Assembly: GCA_048887225.1 (NCBI GenBank)
Contig: JBHLJY010000036.1
Span: 1-17,264 of the forward strand
Length of the DNA: 17,264 nucleotides
Direction: 5' to 3'
Origin: Candidatus Hodarchaeota archaeon
Lineage (GTDB): Archaea; Asgardarchaeota; Lokiarchaeia; Sigyniarchaeales; SOKP01
Below, piece after piece: positions 1 through 17,174 of the stretch (positions are counted from its first letter, which is position 1; every line of letters begins with the position of its first letter). Position numbers and translations under genes: made by a program. Under the pieces are notes generated by a model, which was not told where the DNA came from, searched no databases, and saw only the letters and a program-made list of their open reading frames with translations.

Positions 1-833
1 CTATATCTTCCTGGAATTAAACGTTCTTTTACTCTTTCTTTAAATATTCTTTTTCCTTCTTCAATAACTTCACGTATAAACTGTTTATAATAATCCAAAC
101 CTTCTTTCTCTATAAAATCTAAAACGGCATCACGGATCATGAGATCTCCTGCTAGCCTACATTTTTCATCAAGTTCCCAATACATTGGAGTTCTAACAGA
201 TCTTCTTGCCGTAATCATATGGTCCTTCCAAATCTTATCGTTTGACCCTATTTTTTTACATGTATAATAAACACCATCATCAAAACGCTGAACAGATGAC
301 ATCAAAACATGCCCAGGAGTAATTCCCCCGATATCTATCTGGTGGGTGACTCCTCCTGCCCAACCAATTAATTCATTTTTCCAGAAAATGGGAATTATTG
401 TTTGGACATCTGTGGTGTGCACATTCCCGCAATCAGGATCGTTATTTAGAAATATATCTCCAGGATTGATCCCAGGGTCATCTTCATAATCTTCACGAAC
501 CATAAATTTGACTGCTTCACTCATAGTATGGATATGAACTAAAATACCAGTAGAAACGGCGATTGAATCTCCCTCAGGAGTATACAAGCCAAAACAGAGT
601 TCACCAATTTCTTTGACAATTGGTGATGCTGCCACATGTAAAGCTGTTTCTCTTGCAGATACTAACGCACCTCTTAAACTAGCATAGGCACGCTCATATC
701 GAAAAGGATCTTCTTCTTTTAATCTTAGTTTGTCTGTAGCATAATAATATCCTGTCTTTTGAAACATTTTCTCACTTCCTTCTAACATTTCTATTAGAGT
801 TTTTCCATTCCATCCTATTGGTTTATTCGACAT
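1..833 (-). CDS. acxB: Acetone carboxylase alpha subunit (hydantoinase B/oxoprolinase family), 3'-truncated at the window edge; not in the ORF track
   Basis: Manual translation from ATG 833: MSNKPIGWNGKTLIEMLEGSEKMFQKTGYYY...LRGALVSARETALHVAASPIVKEIGELCFGLYTPEGDSIAVSTGILVHIHTMSEAVKFM...GDIFLNNDPDCGNVHTTDVQTIIPIFW...GWAGGVTHQIDIG. E78/H139/D142/H164 have the same spacing as the recalled AcxB Mn ligands (E89/H150/D153/H175). It lies 3 nt after acxA, with a GGAGGTG SD at 840-846. Confidence 0.9.
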   Translation of the reverse strand, partial: MSNKPIGWNGKTLIEMLEGSEKMFQKTGYYYATDKLRLKEEDPFRYERAYASLRGALVSARETALHVAASPIVKEIGELCFGLYTPEGDSIAVSTGILVHIHTMSEAVKFMVREDYEDDPGINPGDIFLNNDPDCGNVHTTDVQTIIPIFWKNELIGWAGGVTHQIDIGGITPGHVLMSSVQRFDDGVYYTCKKIGSNDKIWKDHMITARRSVRTPMYWELDEKCRLAGDLMIRDAVLDFIEKEGLDYYKQFIREVIEEGKRIFKERVKERLIPGRY

Positions 834-836
834 TTA

Positions 837-3014
837 TTACACCTCCATATGAAAAATTCTATGTTTATCAAGCTTAACCCGGAAACCTGGTGGAACTAAT
901 AAAGTTGTAGCAGGTGCCTCGATAACCGCGGGGCCATTTATAATATTTCCAGGGTTTAACAGATGCATTTCCCAGAGAGAAGCATTATGCCAATTTTTCC
1001 CCCAGAAAATATCTCTGTTCCCCTTAGATGCTATATCATCTGGTTTTTCTCCACTTAACTCGTGCTCGGGTAACTTAGGTTTTGGAACTGGCAGTACTCC
1101 CGTTCCTATTGCTTTAGTTACATGGTATCCAAGTTCGGGACTTTTTGTGCCTCTTCGGAATATCTGGTCAAAAAGATCGTCATATCTTTTGGTTAGTTCC
1201 TTTAAATCATCAGAATCATATCGTTGCATCTCTTCCGAGAAATGTATCCCCAATTCAGCAGTGGGGGACTGAACCTCTAAATCGTCAAACATGCCTAGAT
1301 ACTGAAAACGGACAGAAGGTTTAAATTCCATTTCATTAGGATCCCTCCCTTCTTTTTCTAACTCCTTGGCAATATTATTTTTCAATTCTGACCATGTGGA
1401 GTTGAGCATAGATGCCACAAATGTATTCATACCACCATCAGGAGGTAATATTAAATCCACAGTTTTTTCGTGTCTGTAAGAATAATCAGCACAAGCACAT
1501 CCAAATGCAGAAAAAGCAGGAGCCCATTCTGGTAATAAAATATCTTGAAATGTCATTCCTCTTGAATAACCTGCCACATGAAGTGGTCCACCTCCTCCAA
1601 AAGATATAAGTGTATAATTTTCTGGTCTAAATCCTAATCCTTGAATCATTCCATTAAGATGATTGCTCATATTGATTTCTATTAAATCTAAAGCACCTCT
1701 GGCAGTAATATATGGATCTGCCCTTAAAGGTTCTGCTAGTTGATTTTCGATATATTTATAAGCTCTTTCCTTATTTAATGGAACTTTCCCTCCAAGGAAA
1801 TAGTTTGGATTAAGATATCCAAGAATTAAACTACAATCGGTCATGGTAACCGTCTCCACACCAGATTTTTCATTACATACACCAATAAGATATCCTGCAC
1901 TTTCGGGACCAAACTCTAACCTTCCCGAAATATCGTTGTATCTTACGTACATACCTGTTCCTGCGCCTATGGAATCTAAAGCGATCATAGGTATGTTTAA
2001 TATGAACCTTCCAAGGGAACTTTCCCATTTGGTGGGAACATACCTCTCCATTATTAGACCTACATCGAAGCTCGTACCACCTACATCTGATGAAACCAAA
2101 TTCTTAATCCCATATTTTTCAGCTATAAATTTAGCTCCTATCATTCCACCAATAGGCCCTGAAACCATAGTTGTTATTAGTGATTTGTGGTATGGAGAAA
2201 TTGTTCCACCATAGGAGGTCAAAATTCTAAGTGGTGCTGGCACACCTTTTTCTTGTAATCGTTCAGCTATTTTTATTAATTGTTTTCTTGAAGGTTCTGC
2301 CGCATACTGTTCAATGACAAGAGCATTAAGTCTCGGAGTTTCTCCTCTTACTGGATTATGGACACTTGATAAAATAATAGGGATTTCTTTGCCTTTCTCC
2401 TTCATTATCTCTTTCGCAATTAATTCTACATTCATTTCATGTTTTGCGTTCATATATGAACAAAGGAGGCATACACAAATGCTTTCAACTCCCATATCGA
2501 GCAATTCTATAACCGCTTTCCTTACGTCATCCTTATAAAGTGGAACCAATTCATCGCCCCAAAAGTTAATTCTCCCACGTACACCCTTAATTTGCTTTAG
2601 TGGTATAAGTGGCTCAGGATGTTCGTGCTCTATGGCATGCAGTCGACCTCCATAATCAAGCCAAATCCAGCATTGAAGTGCTCTACCCAATCTAAGAAGG
2701 TCTTCAAAACCAGCATTTACGATTACACCAATATTACTATTTCCTTCCCTTTCCAAAAGTCTATTTAACATCGCAGTACCAGAATATACTAAAGCCTCTA
2801 CGGAATTGCCTGACGCTTCAAGAGTAGACTTCCATTGCCCTAATGAATCAGCTATCGAATTAAGAATACCTTCAGACTCATTCTCAGGAGTAGTAACCGC
2901 TTTCCCTACTGCAAAAGCGCCTTTTTCATCAATGATGAAAGAGTCAGTCATAGTCCCTCCCGTATCTAACGCTATTGCTTTTAAAAAAAATTTATCCTTT
3001 CCTATTTCAGTCAA
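837..3014 (-). CDS. acxA: Acetone carboxylase beta subunit (hydantoinase A/oxoprolinase family, ATP-binding)
   Basis: 725 aa with DTGGTMTD, YSGTAMLNR, SGPIGG, SSDVGGTSFD, SIGAGTG, FGGGGPLH, AFSAFG and GPAVIE motifs. TTG start is preceded by GAAGGA. Directly upstream of an AcxB-like gene. Confidence 0.9.
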   Translation of the reverse strand: MTEIGKDKFFLKAIALDTGGTMTDSFIIDEKGAFAVGKAVTTPENESEGILNSIADSLGQWKSTLEASGNSVEALVYSGTAMLNRLLEREGNSNIGVIVNAGFEDLLRLGRALQCWIWLDYGGRLHAIEHEHPEPLIPLKQIKGVRGRINFWGDELVPLYKDDVRKAVIELLDMGVESICVCLLCSYMNAKHEMNVELIAKEIMKEKGKEIPIILSSVHNPVRGETPRLNALVIEQYAAEPSRKQLIKIAERLQEKGVPAPLRILTSYGGTISPYHKSLITTMVSGPIGGMIGAKFIAEKYGIKNLVSSDVGGTSFDVGLIMERYVPTKWESSLGRFILNIPMIALDSIGAGTGMYVRYNDISGRLEFGPESAGYLIGVCNEKSGVETVTMTDCSLILGYLNPNYFLGGKVPLNKERAYKYIENQLAEPLRADPYITARGALDLIEINMSNHLNGMIQGLGFRPENYTLISFGGGGPLHVAGYSRGMTFQDILLPEWAPAFSAFGCACADYSYRHEKTVDLILPPDGGMNTFVASMLNSTWSELKNNIAKELEKEGRDPNEMEFKPSVRFQYLGMFDDLEVQSPTAELGIHFSEEMQRYDSDDLKELTKRYDDLFDQIFRRGTKSPELGYHVTKAIGTGVLPVPKPKLPEHELSGEKPDDIASKGNRDIFWGKNWHNASLWEMHLLNPGNIINGPAVIEAPATTLLVPPGFRVKLDKHRIFHMEV

Positions 3015-3172: not shown

Positions 3173-3910
3173 TTACTCCAAAAGTTCTTCCAATTCTTTA
3201 TCTGAGATAAATCCTTTATACTCCATTATTTTCTTAATTTCCTTGATAAGATTTGGCTTTGAACTAGATGACTCCGCTAAGTTATCCAAAGCTTCAAATT
3301 TTTTATTTAGTTCATTTAATTGGTTGATTTTGGTTTCCAAATTACTTTTATGACTTTCTAATTCTCTCTCTTTCTCTTTTAATAATTCTTCTTTCTGTTC
3401 TAACTCAGTTTTTAGAGAGGTTATTTCTCCCTTTTTGTCCAATCTCTCTCTTTTCAAATCTTTTTCGATTTTTATTATCTCCTCGTTATTCTTTTTTAAC
3501 TCATTTTCGAGATTTTTAAACTCTTCGTCTTTCTTTTTTAATTCACTAACTAATTTTTCTATTTCTTTATCCTTTTCTCCAATTGTTTCTTCTAATTTAG
3601 ATGTTCTTTCTAACGAGGAATCTAATTTAACTTCCCTTTCAGAAAATTTTGTTTCAGAAACTCTCAATTTTTTCTTTAAATCTGAAATTTCATTTTCTTG
3701 AGAAGAAAATTTATTTTTTAACTCGTTTAAATTTTTAACTGTAGCTGACAATTTTGCATTAGTCTCTATTAGCTTTTTCTTATTTTGCTCTAATTCTCTT
3801 GCCATATCGTTGACTTTTGCTCTAAACTCTAATAAAACTCTTCCTTCTATTTTTTGTTTCAATTCGGGTTTTTCTTTTGCTTTAATCCAATCGATACTAA
3901 TTTTTTTCAC
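3173..3910 (-). CDS. Coiled-coil protein with short conserved C-terminal helical motif (paralog 1); true start may be ATT at 3901
   Basis: E/K/L-rich heptad pattern over most of the length. Ends in LIKEIKKIMEYKGFISDKELEELLE, shared with 6292..6912. The annotated GTG is part of an AGGTGA SD-like sequence. Confidence 0.8.
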   Translation of the reverse strand: MKKISIDWIKAKEKPELKQKIEGRVLLEFRAKVNDMARELEQNKKKLIETNAKLSATVKNLNELKNKFSSQENEISDLKKKLRVSETKFSEREVKLDSSLERTSKLEETIGEKDKEIEKLVSELKKKDEEFKNLENELKKNNEEIIKIEKDLKRERLDKKGEITSLKTELEQKEELLKEKERELESHKSNLETKINQLNELNKKFEALDNLAESSSSKPNLIKEIKKIMEYKGFISDKELEELLE

Positions 3911-4204: not shown

Positions 4205-6250
4205 ATGGCTCTCGACAGAAAAAGGCTTAACGCTTTACTTCAATGGTACAGACAAGAAGTTGGTAAAGATTTCACAGCAGCATTTATTTTAGATCGGGAA
4301 GGTCAAGTTATTGAATATTTAACAAAGGCATCTAATGAAGAGATAGAAATCGAGTTTGTAGACAATATTAGAGAAATTATGGGATTAATCCTCAAACAAA
4401 TAGTAGAAAATTTTACGTTGGGTAAATTTGGAGCTGGATCTTTTGATACTTCTGAATATAGATTTATTTTTTGCGAAGCTGGACCTGATGCCATTTTTGT
4501 AACTTTATTAGATGCTTTAGCAATGGCCGAACCAGTCTTTCCGTATGCCTATTTAGCTGCTGAAAAAGTTGCTGGAATTTTTGAAGGAAAACCTATAAGT
4601 CCTGTTATTCCTAAACTAGTAGTTGATAAAAATATTCAAGATATCCAGCGGAAAGTTGACACCCTTCAGAAACTTAACGTTCCCTTTGCTGATTACGCAT
4701 ATAAATTAATCTTAGGGGGTGATGGTGCTGTAGGAAAAACAAGTATGATACAGCGTTTTGTAGAAGGTATTTTTCGCACGGATTATAAGGCAACAATTGG
4801 AACAGCCATAACTAAAAAAGAATGCAAATTTGATGGATTGGATTCCACAATTCGATTCGTTATTTGGGATTTAGCAGGACAACCACAGTTTAATCGAATA
4901 AGACATCATTATTATTCAAATGCTGAAGCCGCAATGCTAATTTATGATATAACTCGACGGGATACTTTCGATAATATAAAAAAGTGGTTTACTGAAATTA
5001 AAAAAGAAGCGGCACCACATTGCATACTAGTTCTAGTAGGAAATAAAAATGATTTAAAAAATACTAGGGCTGTGTCTACTTCTGAAGGTGAAAACCTAGC
5101 TAAAGAATTAGGAATATCTTACATTGAAACTTCAGCTATAACAGGTGAAAATATAAATGATGCATTTAAGATGCTTGCTCTACAATTAATTAAAAAATAT
5201 TTTGAGGTCATTGAGGTTTCAAAAATTAAAACTGATAAAATTCCGGTATTATCTCAAGAAGGTGATGATAAAATTGAAGTAAAAAAGGCTGAAAAAATCG
5301 CAGATTTGGGTGATTACGAAAAGGTTCTTATCACGGAATTGTGGGATAATGTAGAAAAATTTACTCCCTGGCTTGAAAAGAATATTGAATATCTTAATGA
5401 AGCTTTAGAGATTTCTTTGATTCCAATTGATCAAGAATCCCAAGATAGTATTTACTCTACAAGTATTTTTGCAGAAGATAAATTCGGCAATAAAGTCATA
5501 ATAGAAACTCAGTTTGGTAAAACAAACTCCGAATATTTAGAAAAAATTCTAAAATCTCTTGCATATTACGATGCAAAAATAGCAATTTGGATATGCGAAG
5601 AACCACTCCCAGAACATGAAGTTATGATGTCATGGTTAAATGAAAATAGCCTTGATAATGTGAATTTCTATCTTTGTAAAATAGAAATTTTTAAAATTGA
5701 TAATTCACCCCCAACACCATTATTGATTAAAGTCTGTGGGCCATCACCAGTTTTAAAAAGGATGAGAATTGCTAGTACGAAATTGAATTACATTGAAAGA
5801 AAAAGAATCGAATTTTGGGAGAAATTAATTGAAAAAATATATTCAAACTTTCCTGAACACGCTAATATCACCCCTCTTAGAGGTTCCTGGATTTTTAGTC
5901 CAACGGGAAAAAAAGGAATAAGATATGTCTATGTCATAAATCCAGACTCAGCAGCTATAATGTTATATTTTGACCACCCAAATCAAGAACTCAATCAAAA
6001 GAGATTCAAAGAGCTTGAATCCAAAAAAGAAGAAATAAATAATATGTTTGGGAGCATTTTTTACGATCTTTCAGGTTATTTAGCATGGAATTTTAATAAG
6101 AATATAAATTTCCAAAGCATTACATATAGATTTGAAGAGTGGGGATTGAAAGACGAAGAACAATGGGAAAATTTACAACTCAAAATGATAGATGCAATGA
6201 AATGCTTAGTTCAAGCTGTACAGAACCACATTGATAATTTAACTTATTAA
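4205..6250 (+). CDS. Multidomain protein: Roadblock/LC7-like domain + Rab-like small GTPase + degenerate PD-(D/E)XK nuclease-like domain + DUF4268-like domain
   Basis: G1 GDGAVGKT (4718-4741), G2 YKATIG, G3 WDLAGQ, G4 GNKND, G5 ETSA, plus RabF-like YYSNA and LIYDIT. Residues 1-130 show a Roadblock pattern (helix-AFILDREG-helix-three strands-helix). Residues ~368-515 have FTPWL..N...L...IETQF...IWI.....EH.....WLNE...FKIDNSPPTP. Residues ~535-677 run EFWEKL...W....QW...MIDAM. AGGTTGG precedes the ATG. Confidence 0.85.
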   Translation: MALDRKRLNALLQWYRQEVGKDFTAAFILDREGQVIEYLTKASNEEIEIEFVDNIREIMGLILKQIVENFTLGKFGAGSFDTSEYRFIFCEAGPDAIFVTLLDALAMAEPVFPYAYLAAEKVAGIFEGKPISPVIPKLVVDKNIQDIQRKVDTLQKLNVPFADYAYKLILGGDGAVGKTSMIQRFVEGIFRTDYKATIGTAITKKECKFDGLDSTIRFVIWDLAGQPQFNRIRHHYYSNAEAAMLIYDITRRDTFDNIKKWFTEIKKEAAPHCILVLVGNKNDLKNTRAVSTSEGENLAKELGISYIETSAITGENINDAFKMLALQLIKKYFEVIEVSKIKTDKIPVLSQEGDDKIEVKKAEKIADLGDYEKVLITELWDNVEKFTPWLEKNIEYLNEALEISLIPIDQESQDSIYSTSIFAEDKFGNKVIIETQFGKTNSEYLEKILKSLAYYDAKIAIWICEEPLPEHEVMMSWLNENSLDNVNFYLCKIEIFKIDNSPPTPLLIKVCGPSPVLKRMRIASTKLNYIERKRIEFWEKLIEKIYSNFPEHANITPLRGSWIFSPTGKKGIRYVYVINPDSAAIMLYFDHPNQELNQKRFKELESKKEEINNMFGSIFYDLSGYLAWNFNKNINFQSITYRFEEWGLKDEEQWENLQLKMIDAMKCLVQAVQNHIDNLTY

Positions 6251-6291
6251 ACCAGAGCTTTTAATAACTAATAGAATATTATCTAATTATT

Positions 6292-6912
6292 TTATTTCTC
6301 AATTATTTCTTCGAGTTCTTTATCGGTAATAAATCCTTTATACGCCATCACTTCTTTAATTTTTTTAATAAAAATTGGCGAAATTTGGTTTTCTAGACTC
6401 TTTGCCTCAAGCTCATGAATTCTGTCTTTTAGGGCATTTATTTGTATTACTTTTTTTTCTAAATCAGTCATAATTTTAAAAATTGCTTTATCCTTTTGTA
6501 AAATTGTGTGATCTAAGTCATTTTTATCTATCTCAATTTGAATTTCTTTCTGTTCTATTTCAGCGTTAAGTTTTTCTATTTCTTTATCTTTTTTTGTAAT
6601 TATATTTTTCAATTTAGCTAAATCATCAACTGAAGGGTAAAGTGTATCTTTATCTTTAGTAAATATTTCATCATTTTTTTTCATTTTAGACTTTAAATCT
6701 AAAATGGTTCTATTTAAATTTTTTATAGCGGAAGATAGTTTCTTAAAAATAATTACTAAATCATTTTCTGGGGTTAACACATTTTCTTTAATAGTAGATA
6801 AATCCGTCATATTTTGAGATAGTTGGCGTTCTAAGTCTTCTATTTTTAATTTAATCTCAAGGAGAAGATCCACTTCAGCTCTACTTTTCAAAAGCTCTTC
6901 AAGTCTGATCAT
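6292..6912 (-). CDS. Coiled-coil protein with short conserved C-terminal helical motif (paralog 2); true start may be ATT at 6936
   Basis: Heptad-rich. Contains KDKEIEKL and ends IKKIKEVMAYKGFITDKELEEIIEK, matching 3173..3910. GAGGTGA lies at 6949-6943. Confidence 0.8.
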   Translation of the reverse strand: MIRLEELLKSRAEVDLLLEIKLKIEDLERQLSQNMTDLSTIKENVLTPENDLVIIFKKLSSAIKNLNRTILDLKSKMKKNDEIFTKDKDTLYPSVDDLAKLKNIITKKDKEIEKLNAEIEQKEIQIEIDKNDLDHTILQKDKAIFKIMTDLEKKVIQINALKDRIHELEAKSLENQISPIFIKKIKEVMAYKGFITDKELEEIIEK

Positions 6913-7899: not shown

Positions 7900-9330
7900 A
7901 TGGAAGAAAGTAATTTAATTTTTACTATAAGCGGAATTCGCGGAATTTTTGGCAAGAATTTCAATATTGATATCATCAAGAAAATCGCAATTACATATGG
8001 ATTATGGCTTAGGAGCGAGGATAAAAAGGTTATAATAGGAAGAGATACAAGACCAAGTAGTAAAATTATTGAAAAAGCTATAATAGAAGGACTTACATCA
8101 GTTAATTGTAAAGTTGTTAATTTAGGAGGCTGTCCCACACCAATAATTATTTTTATGAAAAACAAGCTAAACATCGCTGGGGGATTAATTATTACAGGAT
8201 CTCATAATCCTCAAGAATGGAATGGGATAAAGCTACTTTCGGCTAAAACATTTTTAAACGATTCTGAAATGAAAATTATTACAAATAAAGTTAGTAAAAT
8301 CAAATTAAATAATTATAAAACGACTAAATCACATCAATCAGATATCTTATTAATGTCTGATATACTTCACGATTATATTCAGGGACTTCATGATTATCTT
8401 AATTTTAAAGAAATAAGAAATCAAAATGATCTTAAAGTAGTAATTGACACTGGAGCTGGCGCTGGAAAATTCGCAACCCCCCATATTTTAGAAAAACTTG
8501 GTTGTGAAATTAAGTTAATTAATAATAACTTTAATAAAAAAAACAAATTTCCCCGAGAAATAGAACCCGTAAAAAAAAATCTGGACGATTTAATTAAAAA
8601 ACTCTTTGAAGGAAAGTATGATATTGGATTTGCCCACGATAGTGATGCAGACAGGTTAGCCATTATTGGTGAAGATGGGACCTATTATCCAGAAGATATT
8701 AGTTTAGCTCTAATTACTGATTATTTTTTTAAACAATATCATCAAAAGAAGAAAGTAATCTTTGTAACTAATTTAGCGTCTTCTTTAATGTTTGAAGCAC
8801 TTGCCGATAAATATAATGCTCAAATTATTAGAACACCAATCGGCGAACGATTTTTAGCAGAAAAAATGATAGGTTTAATAGAAAAAGATAAACGGTCATC
8901 GATAATATTTGGGGGTGAAGGTTCATGCGGAGGAATAATGGTTCCTCAATTTAATAACACACGAGATGGGATATTTGCTGCCGCGAAAATTGTTGAAATT
9001 TTAGTAAAAACAAATGAAAAAATTTCAAATTTAGTTTATAAACTTCCAAAATTTTACGCCTTTAGAGAATATATTAATACCGAAAATAAAAATCTGAAAA
9101 AAATTATAAACCAATTAAAAAAAGATTTAATTAACGATGGAGCTAACGTTAATCAAATTGATATGGATTTAAGATTTGGTCAGGGAAGCAATTGGTTTGT
9201 TTTAATTCATCCATCAAATACCGAACCAATAATTCGAATAATTAGCGAGGCAAATAACAAGAATTTTGCTAAAAGAAATTTAACTAACACGTCAGAACGA
9301 GTAAAATCTATAGTTTCAAGAGTAAATTAA
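7900..9330 (+). CDS. Alpha-D-phosphohexomutase (phosphoglucosamine mutase/phosphomannomutase family)
   Basis: SGIRG, GRDTR, catalytic TGSHNP (S101), metal-binding DSDADR, GGEGSCGG sugar loop and PSNTEP motif. Confidence 0.93.
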   Translation: MEESNLIFTISGIRGIFGKNFNIDIIKKIAITYGLWLRSEDKKVIIGRDTRPSSKIIEKAIIEGLTSVNCKVVNLGGCPTPIIIFMKNKLNIAGGLIITGSHNPQEWNGIKLLSAKTFLNDSEMKIITNKVSKIKLNNYKTTKSHQSDILLMSDILHDYIQGLHDYLNFKEIRNQNDLKVVIDTGAGAGKFATPHILEKLGCEIKLINNNFNKKNKFPREIEPVKKNLDDLIKKLFEGKYDIGFAHDSDADRLAIIGEDGTYYPEDISLALITDYFFKQYHQKKKVIFVTNLASSLMFEALADKYNAQIIRTPIGERFLAEKMIGLIEKDKRSSIIFGGEGSCGGIMVPQFNNTRDGIFAAAKIVEILVKTNEKISNLVYKLPKFYAFREYINTENKNLKKIINQLKKDLINDGANVNQIDMDLRFGQGSNWFVLIHPSNTEPIIRIISEANNKNFAKRNLTNTSERVKSIVSRVN

Positions 9331-9346
9331 TTAATAAAAAAAGGAA

Positions 9347-10369
9347 TCATAACATATCCAGTATTGGACTGTTTTCTATTTTATAATAAATTAAGGCCAG
9401 AGCACCTCTAAGGCCAATATCATCTCTATAACTTGTCGTTTTTAGTTTGGGTGGATTATTTATCGTAAATATAATTGGATTATTTTCAAATTGTTCAATT
9501 AAAGGTGGTAAAATTTGTTCCTTATCTTTCATCATAGCACCTCCAAAATATATTGAAGTACAATCATAAAAATTATTTACAAGACCGATACCTACTTTCA
9601 TATAAAATATACACTGACCTACAATTTTTTTGGAAAGTTCATCTCCTTCTCTTGCTGCTTGAAATACCTCTTTAGCAGTTATTTTTGAGGTATCATTGTC
9701 TACTATCTTCATTAAAATATCAGCATTTAAGTTGCCTTCCTTTATTGCATCTATAGCCCTATTTATTACTCCAGTTCCTGAACTATAAACCTCCCAACAA
9801 CCATATGCTCCACAATTGCATTGAAAAATACTTTTAGGCTCGACTAAACCATGACCTACTTCGGCAGCATTTCCGTCCTTTCCCAATAATAAATGTCCAT
9901 TACAAATTGCACCTCCTCCTATCCCCGTTGATACTGTTATATAAACTAAATTTTCTTTCTCATCTTCACTTGCTTCGAAATAATGAACTCCTAACACAGC
10001 CGCATTACAGTCGTTAATTAGATATATAGGAACATCGGGAAATTTGGCGTGAATCGGTTCTTTTAAAGGTATTTCCCTAAATCCAAGATTGGCATTATTA
10101 AAAACCTCACCTGTCTCCATGTCTATAGGTCCTGCTGAAGCGAGTCCAATTCCTAATATTTGATCTGCACTAATATTGTTTTCTTTTAATAACTCGGAAA
10201 TCAATATGCAAACTGAATTGCTAATTGAAAACTTCGTTTCTTTTGGCGTGTTAACTACTTTTGTTTTGATATTCTCTTCTTTTAAATCTTGTGTACAAAT
10301 TGCTACACGAATCCAAGTTCCACCGATGTCTACTCCTATTATATATTTTTGAGTTTGATTTTCTCTCAT
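9347..10369 (-). CDS. ROK family sugar kinase (glucokinase-like)
   Basis: GVDIGGT, NDCNAA, STGIGGG and the Zn motif EVGH...CNCGAYGCWE. There is no N-terminal HTH, so kinase rather than repressor. Confidence 0.92.
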   Translation of the reverse strand: MRENQTQKYIIGVDIGGTWIRVAICTQDLKEENIKTKVVNTPKETKFSISNSVCILISELLKENNISADQILGIGLASAGPIDMETGEVFNNANLGFREIPLKEPIHAKFPDVPIYLINDCNAAVLGVHYFEASEDEKENLVYITVSTGIGGGAICNGHLLLGKDGNAAEVGHGLVEPKSIFQCNCGAYGCWEVYSSGTGVINRAIDAIKEGNLNADILMKIVDNDTSKITAKEVFQAAREGDELSKKIVGQCIFYMKVGIGLVNNFYDCTSIYFGGAMMKDKEQILPPLIEQFENNPIIFTINNPPKLKTTSYRDDIGLRGALALIYYKIENSPILDML

Positions 10370-10617: not shown

Positions 10618-11004
10618 TTGAAAGAACATTTTTTTGATTTTTGGCTTTTTTCTAAAGATGGTCTACCCATTGCAGAATTTATTGGTGAGCAAGCCCTGGA
10701 TAAATCGATCCTTGGAGGTCTAGTATCAGCTATCAAGATCTTTAGTCAACAAATTACAAGTAAAGGATTACAGAGTTTATTGTTGGAAGATAATAAATTC
10801 ACATTCATTTCTGCTCTTGAAGGTAGCGCAATTCTGGTTTGTAGAACAAGTTCAAAAGTTAAAGAAAAAAAGATTCAAAAAATTTGTAATAATATCGTCA
10901 AGATCTTTGAAGAATTATACACTCCTAATGATATCATAAATTGGAACGGAGAAGTCAGCTTTTTTGATAAATTTAGAGAGAAATTAGAGAATTATATTAA
11001 ATAA
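10618..11004 (+). CDS. Small stand-alone longin-like domain protein (Asgard type)
   Basis: 128 aa. FWLFSKDGLPI hairpin, D..ILGGLVSAIKIFSQQI helix, three strands, then helices (IVKIFEELY...FFDKFREKLE), giving the beta-beta-alpha-beta-beta-beta-alpha-alpha longin order. TTG start. Confidence 0.7.
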   Translation: MKEHFFDFWLFSKDGLPIAEFIGEQALDKSILGGLVSAIKIFSQQITSKGLQSLLLEDNKFTFISALEGSAILVCRTSSKVKEKKIQKICNNIVKIFEELYTPNDIINWNGEVSFFDKFREKLENYIK

Positions 11005-11011
11005 ATATTCA

Positions 11012-12103
11012 TCATTTAGTTTTTTCTAAAGTATAATAAGTCTCTTCTAACAAATTGAGGTATTTAATCAATATATTATCTGATTTTGTTTTGTTGTCGT
11101 TATAGGTCCTTATGACATTCAAAATATATCCGGGAATGATTAATTCTATTAGGAAATCAGACAATAAAGCATAAAAATCATTACCTTCCGAATCTTGATA
11201 ATTTTTAATTAACTGAGCGTTTAAAAGTAATTCAATCAAATTTTTAACGTTTTTAACACCTTTATATTCAAGTTTCTCAAGTTCCTTTTTCGTAAGAAAA
11301 TTTTCTCTTAGTAAGTTAAATATATTATAAACTTGAGAGTTGCTAAGAACTTCTATTATTTTTAGATTATCTTCTTCTGAAAGCTTATAATCATGGAAAA
11401 ATAAATTACAATCGTTCTGATATCTTGTTTCAATACTTTTAGGAAGGCCTTTTTTGCTAGGGTTTTTTATAAGTTTAAAAGGAGGGATACGGAACATTAT
11501 AAGGTCGTTTATTAAAAATAGCATTACTGAGCGTTCGTATTTTACTGAGAAAATTTGAATAATATCTTTTTGAACAAATTCATATAAAGTTAAATCAATA
11601 TCACCGTATCCTTCTGGATACTTAAATTTAAGCCACGAAGTTAACTCAGATTTAGAAAACATGCCCTCATCTCTTAGTCTAGCGATTATACTTCTTTTAA
11701 TCTCGTTTTGATAAATATTAATTAATTGTTGTTCATAGTTAAGTTTTGGATAATTTATTATGAGTTGGAAGAGTGAGGGTATTAACTCTAAATAACTTTC
11801 ATCTTCTACGTTTTGGAGGAGGATTTGTGATATATCTGCTAAACAACCTTCATACTCATCGGGGTCCTCACTTAAACTTAAAATTATTAAAATACAGTAA
11901 TTGGTGATAGGGCCAGTATAATAGGATGCTATGTGCGTATTTCCAACATTTAAACTTATCATACCGCGCTCTCCTGAGTATTCATGTGTATTGAATACGT
12001 GCATTAGAGTTCGATCGTCTATTTCAAGATCTTCCGGATATTTTGCTAAAATATCGTTTCCAGTCAATTCATTCCATCTCATAAAGATTAATCCTATTGG
12101 CAT
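11012..12103 (-). CDS. Hypothetical protein with N-terminal uDENN/longin-like domain and two putative winged-helix domains
   Basis: N-terminus GLIFMRWNELTGNDILAKYP resembles uDENN/longin starts. SIIARLRDEGMFSKSELTSWL...LYEFVQKDII and IFNLLRENFLTKKEL...LIELLLNAQLI look like wHTH. GGAGG SD at 12117-12113. Confidence 0.6.
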   Translation of the reverse strand: MPIGLIFMRWNELTGNDILAKYPEDLEIDDRTLMHVFNTHEYSGERGMISLNVGNTHIASYYTGPITNYCILIILSLSEDPDEYEGCLADISQILLQNVEDESYLELIPSLFQLIINYPKLNYEQQLINIYQNEIKRSIIARLRDEGMFSKSELTSWLKFKYPEGYGDIDLTLYEFVQKDIIQIFSVKYERSVMLFLINDLIMFRIPPFKLIKNPSKKGLPKSIETRYQNDCNLFFHDYKLSEEDNLKIIEVLSNSQVYNIFNLLRENFLTKKELEKLEYKGVKNVKNLIELLLNAQLIKNYQDSEGNDFYALLSDFLIELIIPGYILNVIRTYNDNKTKSDNILIKYLNLLEETYYTLEKTK

Positions 12104-13340: not shown

Positions 13341-13937
13341 TTATTTAACTTCTATTTCTTTCGGTTTCTTTTCCTCAAGTTCTTTCTTTGGTAAGTCCAG
13401 TTTCAAAACTCCTTTATCTAAAGTAGCGTCAATTTTATCCTCGTCGACGTCTTCAGGCAATTTAAAGGCTCGATAATAGCTTGAACTACTATATTCTTTT
13501 CTAACATAACCTTCTTTTTTTTCTTCATACTCATCTTTTTTCTCGCCTTTAATTTCTAATGATCCCTCGTGAATTTTAATCTCTAAATCACCTTTATCTA
13601 AACCAGGCAACTCAGCTGTCAAATGATATCCTTCATCATCTTCCATTACATTCGACAATGGGGTTCTAAAGAAATCTTCGTCAAAAAGTTTCAAACTAAA
13701 AGGCTCAAAATCCCATCTAAAAGGTCTCCAAAACATATCATTAAGCCATCCGGTTATATCGTTAAAAAATCTGTCAATGTTTCTAAACATAGATAATGGT
13801 CGATATTTTCGTCTTACTTCGATCTGTCCTTCTTTGCTTTCCTCTTTAGGAGTTTCTTCTATTTTGGGTTCTTCTTTAGTTTCAGTATGTTCCTCTTTTC
13901 TTATTTCCACCTTTTTTTCTTCCTTTATATCTGACAT
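13341..13937 (-). CDS. hsp20: Small heat shock protein, Hsp20/alpha-crystallin family (start revised to ATG 13937)
   Basis: AELPGLDKGDLEI, LEIKGE, YYRAFKLP, ATLDKGVLKLDLPK and a C-terminal IEV (IxI/V) motif. The track's ATG 13952 overlaps GGAGG (13950-13946), which is a well-spaced SD for ATG 13937. Confidence 0.93.
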   Translation of the reverse strand: MSDIKEEKKVEIRKEEHTETKEEPKIEETPKEESKEGQIEVRRKYRPLSMFRNIDRFFNDITGWLNDMFWRPFRWDFEPFSLKLFDEDFFRTPLSNVMEDDEGYHLTAELPGLDKGDLEIKIHEGSLEIKGEKKDEYEEKKEGYVRKEYSSSSYYRAFKLPEDVDEDKIDATLDKGVLKLDLPKKELEEKKPKEIEVK

Positions 13938-13965
13938 GATATTAACCTCCATAATTTAATTTTTT

Positions 13966-14025
13966 ATATTTGTAAATTTTTTTTTGTCAAGTATTTCTTG
14001 ACGTCAACCACTAATTTACAAATAT
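13966..14025. promoter_or_regulatory. Nested inverted repeats upstream of hsp20 (candidate operator or hairpin)
   Basis: 13-bp perfect arms ATATTTGTAAATT (13966-13978) and AATTTACAAATAT (14013-14025). Inner GTCAAG-N5-CTTGAC (13986-14002). Palindrome TTGACGTCAA (13998-14007). Confidence 0.55.
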
Positions 14026-14034
14026 TGATTTACA

Positions 14035-14049
14035 TATTTAAAAGTTTCG
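14035..14049 (-). promoter_or_regulatory. Archaeal BRE/TATA promoter of hsp20
   Basis: Minus strand reads CGAAAC-TTTTAAATA, close to the BRE + TATA consensus. Confidence 0.6.
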
Positions 14050-14110
14050 TTTTTTGAAATTAAAACTTAGATACTCAGAAATTATGAAAATTAAGTATTT
14101 ACCTTATTGA

Positions 14111-14125
14111 GGAAAAGTTTTATAA
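14111..14125 (+). promoter_or_regulatory. Archaeal BRE/TATA promoter of the acyl-CoA synthetase gene
   Basis: GGAAAAG-TTTTATAA lies 45 nt upstream of ATG 14171, and an AAGGA SD-like sequence precedes the start. Confidence 0.55.
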
Positions 14126-14170
14126 TCCTTAACATTTATTTGTATATTTAAACAACCAAAAGGAAATACT

Positions 14171-15970
14171 ATGGATTTTTATACTCCAGAAGAGTTAGAA
14201 CACTTAAATAAATTTATAGAACTAATGGATGAAGTTCTTAAAAATCCAAACCAGAGTATTGGTACTCAAGTTGAAAAATTAGCAGAAGAGATGCCAGAGA
14301 AGGTTGTTTTATATTTTCAGGATGAATCTTGGACATGGCAGGTTTTCAATGAGGAATGTAATAAAATTGCTAATTATTTCCATAATTTGGGATTAAAACC
14401 AGGTGAAACAATTGCAATAATGCTTGAAAATTCTCCCGAATATCTTTTTCTTACGAGTGGAATAAACAAGATTCAAGGGATCACTGCTTTAATGAATATT
14501 AACCAAAGAAAACAAGCCTTAACTCATGCTTTTAAGATAGTTAATCCAAAGTGGATCGTGATTGATGGAGATTGCTTACCGTCCTTTATTGAGATTCTCA
14601 AAGACCTTCCTCATAAGAATGATCAAATTTTTGTCGTTAATAATGATGAAAATATTTCGCATAATTTTTTGGATTTCCTTGCTGAGCTTAAATCTACATC
14701 TAAATCTAATCCTAACACCACCTTTAATTCGATTTTGCGACAGATTGCTTATTATATGTTTACCTCAGGTACGACAGGACTTCCTAAAGCGGTAATTATG
14801 GAAAATTTCAAATTATATACTCAAGCATTATATGTAGGAATTGCCTTGTCAAAAGTAATTCCTCAAGATATTATTTACATCCCGACGCCTCTATATCATA
14901 ATCTAGGGTTAGGAATTGCGTGGTCAACGGCTTTTGCAACTGGTGCAACTGTCGCGCTGAGAAAACGATTCTCCGCTTCTCAATTCTGGAAGGATATTCA
15001 GAAATATAAAGCAACTTTTACGATGTATATAGGCGAAATCCCTCGATATCTTCTTAATCAACCACCATCCGAATACGAAAAAAACCATACACTTGAAAAA
15101 ATGACTGGATTAGGACTCCAAAAGGACGTCTGGGAGCGTTTTAAATCTCGCTTTAAAGTTGAACATATTTATGAATTCTATGGCTTAACTGAAGGTATTC
15201 GTATGTTCAGTAATGTCAACGAAGTCCCAGGAATGGTTGGAAGAAACAATCAGAGAGGTCTTGTTTTAGCAAAAGTTGATCCGGAAACAGGTGAATTCTT
15301 TAAAAATGAGAAAGGTTATTGTATTAGATGTAAACCTGGTGACATAGGGATGGCCTTAATGAAAGTAGAAAAGACAACAATTTTTACAGGCTATAAGGAT
15401 AAGGATAAGACTCAAAAGAGATTGATGTATAATGTATTCAGAAAAAATGATACATATTTCAACACAGGTGATATACTAAAGCTCCATGAGGATCTCTATA
15501 TATCTTTCGCGGATAGATTTGGTGACACATTCCGATGGAAAGGAGAAAATGTCTCCACCTCAGAAGTCGAAGCAATCTTAAATTCACACGAATCAATACA
15601 TACGTCTGCCGTATATGGTGTGACAATTCCTAATACAGAAGGAAAGGCATGTATGGCTGCAACTAAATTAGATCCGTCAATTAAATTTGATATAGAGGAT
15701 TTTTCCCGATTTGTGTGTGAAGTATTACCAGGATATTCTATTCCTATTTTCATTCGTATATGTGATGATCTCGAAACAACTTCCAGTAGTTTTAAAATAA
15801 GAAAGATTAACCTTAAACAAGAAGCCTATAATCTTAAAAGTATTCGTGATAAACTTATTTATTGGGATCCAAGGTTAAAAAAATATATCCCTTTTAACAA
15901 ATTGGAATATCAGAAAATAATGGACGGAAAATTTGGTGAAATAAAATCGGGAGTAACAGCTCGCATGTAA
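14171..15970 (+). CDS. Long-chain acyl-CoA synthetase, FATP/FadD6 (SLC27-like) subfamily
   Basis: AMP-binding YMFTSGTTGLPKA, PLYH, YIGEIPRYLL, EFYGLTEG, YFNTGD and the FATP signature DRFGDTFRWKGENVST. Confidence 0.93.
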   Translation: MDFYTPEELEHLNKFIELMDEVLKNPNQSIGTQVEKLAEEMPEKVVLYFQDESWTWQVFNEECNKIANYFHNLGLKPGETIAIMLENSPEYLFLTSGINKIQGITALMNINQRKQALTHAFKIVNPKWIVIDGDCLPSFIEILKDLPHKNDQIFVVNNDENISHNFLDFLAELKSTSKSNPNTTFNSILRQIAYYMFTSGTTGLPKAVIMENFKLYTQALYVGIALSKVIPQDIIYIPTPLYHNLGLGIAWSTAFATGATVALRKRFSASQFWKDIQKYKATFTMYIGEIPRYLLNQPPSEYEKNHTLEKMTGLGLQKDVWERFKSRFKVEHIYEFYGLTEGIRMFSNVNEVPGMVGRNNQRGLVLAKVDPETGEFFKNEKGYCIRCKPGDIGMALMKVEKTTIFTGYKDKDKTQKRLMYNVFRKNDTYFNTGDILKLHEDLYISFADRFGDTFRWKGENVSTSEVEAILNSHESIHTSAVYGVTIPNTEGKACMAATKLDPSIKFDIEDFSRFVCEVLPGYSIPIFIRICDDLETTSSSFKIRKINLKQEAYNLKSIRDKLIYWDPRLKKYIPFNKLEYQKIMDGKFGEIKSGVTARM

Positions 15971-15989
15971 AGATTATAAATACATTTGT

Positions 15990-17174
15990 TTAATACTTCA
16001 AAGAAAAAGGAAATGTACCTGTTACTCTCCAAATTGCCAAATCTTCGAACCCAAAAATCTCAGCTTTAGTTAAATCCCCATTACACGTTTTTCTTAGTTT
16101 TTCCCATAAAGAATCTGCAATATTTTCGACAGATTTATTTTCGGTAATAATTTTACTAGCGTCTACATCAATATTGATTTTCATCCAATCGCAAGTTCTT
16201 ACATTTCCACATACTTTAATAACAGGAGCAACAGGATTTCCGCAAGGACTACCTCGACCAGTAGTCATTATTATTAGTTGAGCTCCAGCAGCAGCCAAAC
16301 CCGTCATAGATTCAACATCAAAACCAGGTTCTATCATTAACCATAATCCATTTCTTCTTGGTTTTACTGAATAATCCAATATCCCTTGTATTGGAGCCTT
16401 GCCTGCTTTCGCAATAGTGCCTAATGATTTTTCTTCTATCGTGGTCAATCCTCCCTGAATGTTTCCTGGTGTAGGTTGTATCCCTCTAAAATCAATACCC
16501 ATCTTCATAGTGTTTTCCAAAAATTTTTTAATTGGATGATGAATTTCATCAGCGACCTTCTCGTTTATCGCACGCTTCATTAATAAATGCTCCGTCCCAA
16601 TCCATTCTGTAAACTCTGGAAGAATTGAAGTTCCCCCTAATTCCACAACTTTGTCTGATACAATCCCAACAGCGGGATTTGCAGTAATCCCTGATATTGA
16701 ATCAGAGCCTCCGCATTCTAACCCTAAAACCAAATGAGAGAAATCAAATGGCTCTCGTTTTAATTCACCTGCTTCTATAGCCATATTTTTGCCATATTCT
16801 ATTCCCTTTTCGATGGCGGCATTTGTTCCTCCGTTTATATCTTGAAGATTAAAGAATTTAACTGGTTTTTTTGATTTTTTAATATGTCTTGCTAAGAGAT
16901 TGCTAGTTAAATTTTCACATCCAAGACCTATGATAACAACTCCATAGACATTAGGATTACTAGCAAGACCTGCCAACGTACGTACTGTATAGGAAAAATC
17001 AGTGCCAAATTGCCCGCAACCAAGTGGATGAGTTAATGCAACAGAATTTTTAACATTTTTTGCAATTTGTTCTGCCACATGATTAACACATACTACAGAG
17101 GATAAAATAGCGATTTTATTCCGAATTCCAACTAGCCCTTTTGGTCGTTGATATCCTAAAAATTCTTCAGTCAT
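15990..17174 (-). CDS. UxaA/GarD-family dehydratase large subunit (altronate dehydratase or sulfolactate sulfo-lyase SuyB-like)
   Basis: FLGYQRPKGLVGIRN, HPLGCGQ, GLGCE, LECGGSDSISGITANPAVG, PTPGNIQGGLTTIEEKSLG and TTGRGSPCG motifs. No N-terminal SAF domain. Confidence 0.9.
   Translation of the reverse strand: MTEEFLGYQRPKGLVGIRNKIAILSSVVCVNHVAEQIAKNVKNSVALTHPLGCGQFGTDFSYTVRTLAGLASNPNVYGVVIIGLGCENLTSNLLARHIKKSKKPVKFFNLQDINGGTNAAIEKGIEYGKNMAIEAGELKREPFDFSHLVLGLECGGSDSISGITANPAVGIVSDKVVELGGTSILPEFTEWIGTEHLLMKRAINEKVADEIHHPIKKFLENTMKMGIDFRGIQPTPGNIQGGLTTIEEKSLGTIAKAGKAPIQGILDYSVKPRRNGLWLMIEPGFDVESMTGLAAAGAQLIIMTTGRGSPCGNPVAPVIKVCGNVRTCDWMKINIDVDASKIITENKSVENIADSLWEKLRKTCNGDLTKAEIFGFEDLAIWRVTGTFPFSLKY

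Follow-up and report, generated by a model that had tools for sequence, protein, structure and literature searches.

A Roadblock-Rab-like GTPase fused to an eroded PDC-S11 defence nuclease module in Asgard archaea

The stretch of DNA analysed here (the window; 17,264 nucleotides, contig JBHLJY010000036.1 of an Asgard archaeon) carries an open reading frame (ORF) at 4205..6250 of the forward strand that was confirmed as a single, genuine fusion gene encoding 681 amino acids (aa). From the N-terminus, the protein comprises a Roadblock/MglB-fold domain (aa 1-130; 4205..4594, +), a Rab-like small GTPase domain (aa 163-332; 4691..5200, +; Pfam Ras E 1.6e-51), a NucS-like PD-(D/E)XK fold of the PDC-S11 type with an eroded active site (aa 368-515; 5306..5749, +) and a DUF4268 domain (aa 534-675; 5804..6229, +), which is a putative modified-base reader in the parent family and the sole DUF4268 copy found in this genome. 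The fusion joint is a charged, low-confidence linker (aa 333-367; 5201..5305, +), with a predicted local distance difference test score below 50 at 344-370. Profile and fold comparisons bore out this four-part layout, including the restriction-endonuclease-like and DUF4268 half, which an earlier note had read from the sequence alone. That note also considered a chimeric assembly at the junction (5200-5310), and contigs of two studies were found to span it: one sequencing run yielded a contig that covers 4355-6400, the Ser420 codon included, with 0 differences, and a run of another study carried the whole fusion gene on one contig with 130 differences. The full-length AlphaFold2 model, built from a 9-row alignment, reached a predicted template modelling score of 0.46, with part of the G domain at low confidence, and was uninformative on interdomain contacts. 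A homodimer prediction for the C-terminal module scored 0.17 against a mark of 0.42, giving no verdict and no evidence either way.

The N-terminal half has the G1-G5 motifs of the Ras superfamily (G1 at 4718-4741, G3 including Gln226 at 4868-4882, G4 at 5042-5053 and G5 at 5132-5140, all +), together with the switch I Thr and the switch II Gln. Motif comparison agreed with the earlier claim that these motifs are intact, catalytic Gln included, and that a C-terminal Cys prenylation motif is absent; the protein ends in DUF4268 and is therefore Rab-like only, not a Rab proper. The G motifs were conserved in 25 fused members, and in one further member (P0005) Asp replaces the G3 Gly. Judging from its family, the G domain would cycle between GTP and GDP, that is, act as a working switch. 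The Roadblock fold is also present, including its N-terminal helix; judging from its family (PMC10933270), this domain probably associates with a second Roadblock domain and would provide a regulatory (GAP/GEF) platform. Roadblock-GTPase architectures are known in Asgard archaea, and Tran et al. 2024 (PMC10933270) place Roadblock or longin domains on 26 of the 74 small GTPases of MK-D1. The N-half belongs to this class, while a nuclease-derived or DUF4268 tail is not mentioned in the passages of that study that were consulted. Its closest reference within the genome is a core, unfused Roadblock-GTPase paralogue of 338 aa, to which it is 59% identical. Relative to such known Asgard proteins, the fused paralogue has diverged in two places: position 196 of switch I, a Ser near-invariant in the core gene, is Ala in 25/25 fusions, and Roadblock helix 2 (54-72) is changed at sites that are near-invariant in the core gene. 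Two other kinds of paralogue were noticed, namely a 520-aa GTPase (G000 C1:52750-54310), whose C-terminal part resembles by eye a second, degenerate G domain, and a third Roadblock-GTPase with open frames of ~400-426 aa (G153:C111, G156:C25, G157:C51, G154:C486, G176:C37 and G173:C295).

The C-terminal half corresponds to a complete PDC-S11 module. Residues 369-679 span the full PADLOC profile (E 5e-74), and an E. coli PDC-S11 protein aligns with the module end to end (HHalign probability 99.9). Comparison of the module profile with the sequences of solved structures gave no match and Foldseek alone none that was clear, whereas VIA-align returned clear structural matches. PDC-S11 has been renamed Madara; it restricts T4 containing glucosyl-hydroxymethylcytosine (glucosyl-hmC), not unmodified T4, and its defence is abolished by D63A (bioRxiv 10.64898/2026.09.05.749240). 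Similarly, MdgA, composed of NucS and DUF4268, breaks down modified T4 DNA in vitro, an activity that the E77A change abolishes (bioRxiv 10.1101/2025.02.28.640651). D63 and E77 of the E. coli protein align with S420 and E434 of the fusion. The first match was made through an E. coli PDC-S11 protein numbered D63/E77 and not from the Madara sequence, and the second relies on the E77 context VIV-E-NKL, taken from the MdgA mutagenesis primer (bioRxiv 10.1101/2025.02.28.640651). The donor was of the short E-x-Q subtype, while the enzymes tested by mutagenesis belong to the long E-N-K subtype.

The module shares with Madara a NucS-like PD-(D/E)XK domain followed by a putative modification-sensing domain, and with MdgA, of MdgA/MdgB, the NucS and DUF4268 domains in identical order. 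However, Madara is a separate gene beside a bacteriophage exclusion (BREX) system, depends on D63 and restricts glucosyl-hmC T4, whereas the module described here follows a Roadblock-GTPase within one fused protein, is of the short E-x-Q subtype, has Ser in place of Asp and lies outside a defence island. Likewise, MdgA is an active modification-dependent DNase, whereas in the fusion the Asp, the Tyr and the DHxH motif are gone and Gln stands in place of the Lys, a feature that the donor subtype has too. Compared with the mismatch endonuclease EndoMS/NucS (2vld, 5gke), the module has only 10-15% identity and lacks both the N-terminal mismatch-binding domain and the catalytic Asp. Judged by its sequence, the C-half is a descendant of PDC-S11, but its catalytic residues and its gene context do not allow it to be classed as an active Madara or MdgA. 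The capture of a nucleic-acid or defence module that the earlier note had proposed is thereby supported and the module can be named, but its degenerate nuclease site had been missed. In a separate observation, long-subtype PDC-S11 genes of E. coli (L031, L147, L148 and L149) were seen to occupy type I restriction operons, with hsdS on one side and hsdR on the other; three E. coli relatives were within such restriction-modification operons and not beside BREX.

In order to follow the active site, we compared 108 diverse short-subtype proteins that stand alone with 23 non-redundant fusions (internal identity 45% and 40%, respectively); kin are not independent in these residue counts. D420, E434, Q436, H444 and Y451 were present in 108/108 stand-alones, E383 in 106/108 and H442 in 104/108. 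The same residues were found in 13 (D420), 14 (E434), 19 (Q436), 6 (H444), 0 (Y451), 2 (E383) and 1 (H442) of the fusions. The 681-aa protein has Ser420 (AGT; 5462..5464, +) at the position of the catalytic Asp, where its nearest relative, the 93%-identical L034, has GAT (Asp). It keeps E434-T-Q436 (5504..5512, +), the leftover of the E-x-(K/Q) motif, has Ser451 (5555..5557, +) where the RecB-type QxxxY-like helix would have its Tyr, and carries V383, S442 and Y444 at the remaining sites. Altogether, the D-E-Q triad is complete in 108/108 stand-alones versus 8/23 fusions, and out of eight active-site residues the stand-alones keep 6-8 (all 8 in 99 of them) and the fusions 0-5, with 3 in the 681-aa protein. 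The scaffold behaves differently: 6-8 of eight hydrophobic core residues are kept in the fusions, and W389, W462, L478 and P513 in 22-23 of 23. Early loss is indicated for most residues that line the site, since E383, G415, F417, H442 and Y451 are missing from almost every fusion. The Asp and Glu that bind the metal were lost several more times afterwards, including D420S in this species; on a tree of 26 fusions, changes were counted six times for the Asp, four times for the Glu and five times for the triad. A nuclease output finds no support, since the site is degenerate in the 681-aa protein and across the fused clade.

The tail nevertheless remains under constraint. Ratios of non-synonymous to synonymous substitution rates (dN/dS), pooled over seven pairs, were lowest in the Roadblock and G domains (0.07), higher in DUF4268 (0.18) and the NucS-like domain (0.22) and highest in the linker (0.31), as obtained by simple counting with some pairs near saturation. 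The tail evolves at ~2.5x the rate of the N-half. No complete member of the fused clade has lost the entire tail, and new positions have become near-invariant in the fusions, namely E465 (26/26) and Q637 (23/23), which occur in 36/108 and 5/108 stand-alones. In DUF4268, W562 is retained and R634 in most cases, but two arginines that stand-alones commonly have, R635 and R638, are gone from the fusions; the 681-aa protein also lacks R634 and E586. The mean charge of the domain shifts from +1.7 in stand-alones to -1.2 in fusions. Furthermore, 2 of 19 fusions, of 510 and 513 aa, stop behind the NucS-like domain and have no trace of DUF4268 in their vicinity. McrB-N and EVE were not among the listed fold matches of DUF4268, which does not imply their exclusion; 2a8e and, probably, 3mqz (given as 3mgz in the publication) are structural neighbours of both DUF4268 and the McrB-N reader. 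Tandem DUF4268 domains were noticed in P0104 (five) and P0191 (four).

The distribution was surveyed in 400 genomes of the phylum, 135 of them in the family of the window's genome (f1, Promethearchaeia). The fusion was present as one ORF in 19/135 family genomes from 7 genera, and one more was cut by a contig end. Over the C-half, eight other fused proteins were 39-91% identical to this one. With this query, the fusion was not found in the other 265 sampled genomes, outside f1, nor in genera g2, g11 and g12. No longer fused forms (>1192 aa) were found, which is weak evidence. An 854-aa open frame in genus g11 (G227:C4:45761-46315) matches only positions 123-310 of the module profile and has a different architecture. 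In a quick tree, the fused C-halves occupied one side of a branch (Shimodaira-Hasegawa-like approximate likelihood ratio test 99), and their sister consisted of two intact stand-alones, one from the same family. The fused N-halves formed one clade (100/98), and the lone 'unfused' sequence within this clade is truncated by the end of its contig. When the tree of the fusions was compared with that of the core paralogues in 18 genomes, well-supported clades were shared (Mantel rho 0.36-0.43, p <= 0.005). The unfused core Roadblock-GTPase is kept in all 18 other carriers and in the window's genome, and the fusion is an extra paralogue because every carrier keeps the core gene. We read these phylogenies as indicating one duplication, one fusion, vertical descent and frequent loss.

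Together, these findings suggest that the C-half is probably, though far from certainly, a domesticated pseudo-nuclease that provides a functional GTPase switch with a module for binding and not for cutting. As the trees and tallies show, the seven Promethearchaeia genera had an ancestor in which the core Roadblock-Rab-like GTPase gene was duplicated, and in a single in-frame event the copy was joined to a complete gene for a PDC-S11 defence nuclease. Both acquired domains retained their fold while the cutting residues were lost. As the pattern of loss suggests, the tail would bind rather than cut and give the paralogue a partner or a place of its own, the partner most likely being a protein and possibly nucleic acid. 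Several points weigh against this proposal. The fusion is patchy, being absent from the near-complete same-genus genomes G168 and G174 and likewise missing in g11 and g12, which are large genera. Purifying selection of ~0.2 could stem from folding alone. The stand-alone controls were picked by best hidden Markov model score, which favours conserved sequences. The fusions that retain D-E-Q include the closest relatives (91-93% identical), and mutagenesis of the short E-x-Q subtype was not found in the literature.

We also considered that a Rab-like GTPase could be linked to a restriction enzyme which, although disarmed, still recognises modified DNA of viruses, or a viral inhibitor of such enzymes, and signals through the GTP switch. 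This idea has a low chance of being right; if true, it would describe an archaeal receptor in which detection is kept apart from killing, as in the innate immune receptors of eukaryotes. In the version close to the coupling of phage or nucleic-acid sensing to GTPase signalling put forward in the earlier note, DUF4268 and the dead nuclease would bind modified viral DNA uncut, and binding would flip the switch and thereby set off defence or a stress response. The data weakened this version, which we regard as unlikely. The neighbours of the fusions are variable and of housekeeping type, with no defence genes recognised among the recurring ones, whereas the nearest intact stand-alone, from the same family, lies ~2 kb from CARF, Cas6 and Cas3-like genes. 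One subclade has dispensed with DUF4268 altogether, the basic residues of the domain are partly lost and its charge is inverted, and the long vertical inheritance contrasts with defence genes, which turn over fast.

Alternatively, the tail could be a tolerated passenger without function, folded only to spare the attached GTPase and slowly lost. Repeated loss of catalytic residues, the subclade without DUF4268, the faster rate of the tail and the patchiness of the gene would all fit. However, the tail could be dropped free of cost by a stop codon behind the G domain, which no complete member has, and the fusions have new near-invariant residues, E465 and Q637; we consider this explanation likewise unlikely. 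A GTP-gated nuclease, active or recently so, controlled by the GTPase with a McrBC-like logic and represented here by a recent loss allele, is much less credible. The triad-retaining fusions speak for it, and they may have weak activity by analogy with EcoR124I, in which single QxxxY mutants slow cleavage and do not stop it (PMC2475608). On the other hand, E383, H442 and Y451 have all but vanished from the fusions, the triad was broken in several lineages under selection and the 681-aa protein lacks the Asp. About as improbable is an integrated decoy, analogous to the integrated domains of plant nucleotide-binding leucine-rich repeat receptors, in which the dead copy would be a bait for viral inhibitors or DNA mimics of PDC-S11 nucleases and its capture would trigger the GTPase. 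The kept fold, lost catalysis and fast-evolving surface are compatible with a bait, and G153 carries both the fusion and an intact stand-alone; nevertheless, in most carriers no intact PDC-S11 gene to guard was found, and we know of no inhibitor of PDC-S11-type nucleases. Finally, an assembly chimera or a read-through of two adjoining genes, for which only the odd architecture speaks, was rejected given the identical layout as one ORF in 19 genomes, the congruent trees of both halves and the contigs across the joint.

The fusion resembles McrBC, in which a modified-base reader is combined with a GTPase and a PD-(D/E)XK nuclease, in nothing but the parts list. McrB is an AAA+ ring motor and McrC is active, whereas the G domain here has a Ras fold. 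Our literature search, made mostly outside subscription journals, found no account of a Roadblock-GTPase-NucS-DUF4268 architecture, in line with the earlier impression that it is undescribed. The fusion would represent a prokaryotic defence gene that Asgard archaea have domesticated as part of a signalling protein of eukaryotic type, with donor, parent, single fusion and stepwise loss of catalysis readable from genomes, and it shows one route by which Asgard small GTPases gained new domains. In addition, the intact stand-alone sister and the triad-retaining, dead and DUF4268-less fusions constitute a natural series for probing DUF4268 binding. Its reach is limited, as the fusion occurs in only a part of a single family and is often lost, and no link to eukaryotic proteins was seen.

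The surroundings of the gene differ among carriers. In the window, its neighbours encode coiled-coil, GNAT, phosphomutase, ROK kinase and hydantoinase proteins. The housekeeping genes lie at 3-3014, 7900-10369 and 13341-17174 and comprise hydantoinase/oxoprolinase A and B, the phosphomutase, the ROK kinase and the C-terminal part of a galactarate/altronate dehydratase, with a small heat-shock protein and an acyl-CoA synthetase recognised by eye. Promoter-like sites were no more frequent than expected by chance, no terminator was found, and an Atlas feature search gave low scores only. Two paralogous coiled-coil genes with a common C-terminal motif flank the fusion (3173-3910 and 6292-6912, both -). 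This family also flanks it in L034 and, with three copies, in L036, both of the same genus, and not in other genera, and a three-gene module was rejected on this distribution. A possible third coiled-coil copy was noticed on contig C32. The core unfused gene (G000 C13:44357-45370) follows the PolD small and large subunits and precedes ThiL-like, TruB/Cbf5 and methyltransferase genes; its highly conserved locus (L050-L066) also has RNA polymerase subunits by eye, which gives the gene a constant place next to replication and transcription genes.

In one subclade of the fusions, a Tpt1/KptA RNA 2'-phosphotransferase gene lies directly downstream (L035:7792, L038:8088, L042:7298 and L043:2606) and overlaps the fusion end in L035. 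A gene of 120-138 aa, longin/Roadblock-like by eye and without a Pfam match, is divergently upstream in L038 (5287-5700, -), L039, L042, L043 and L044. Two further genes of the window are conserved in L034: one at 10618-11004 (+) with a weak Robl_LC7 match (E 0.011) and, convergent at 11012-12103 (-), one encoding a 363-aa protein of no known family.
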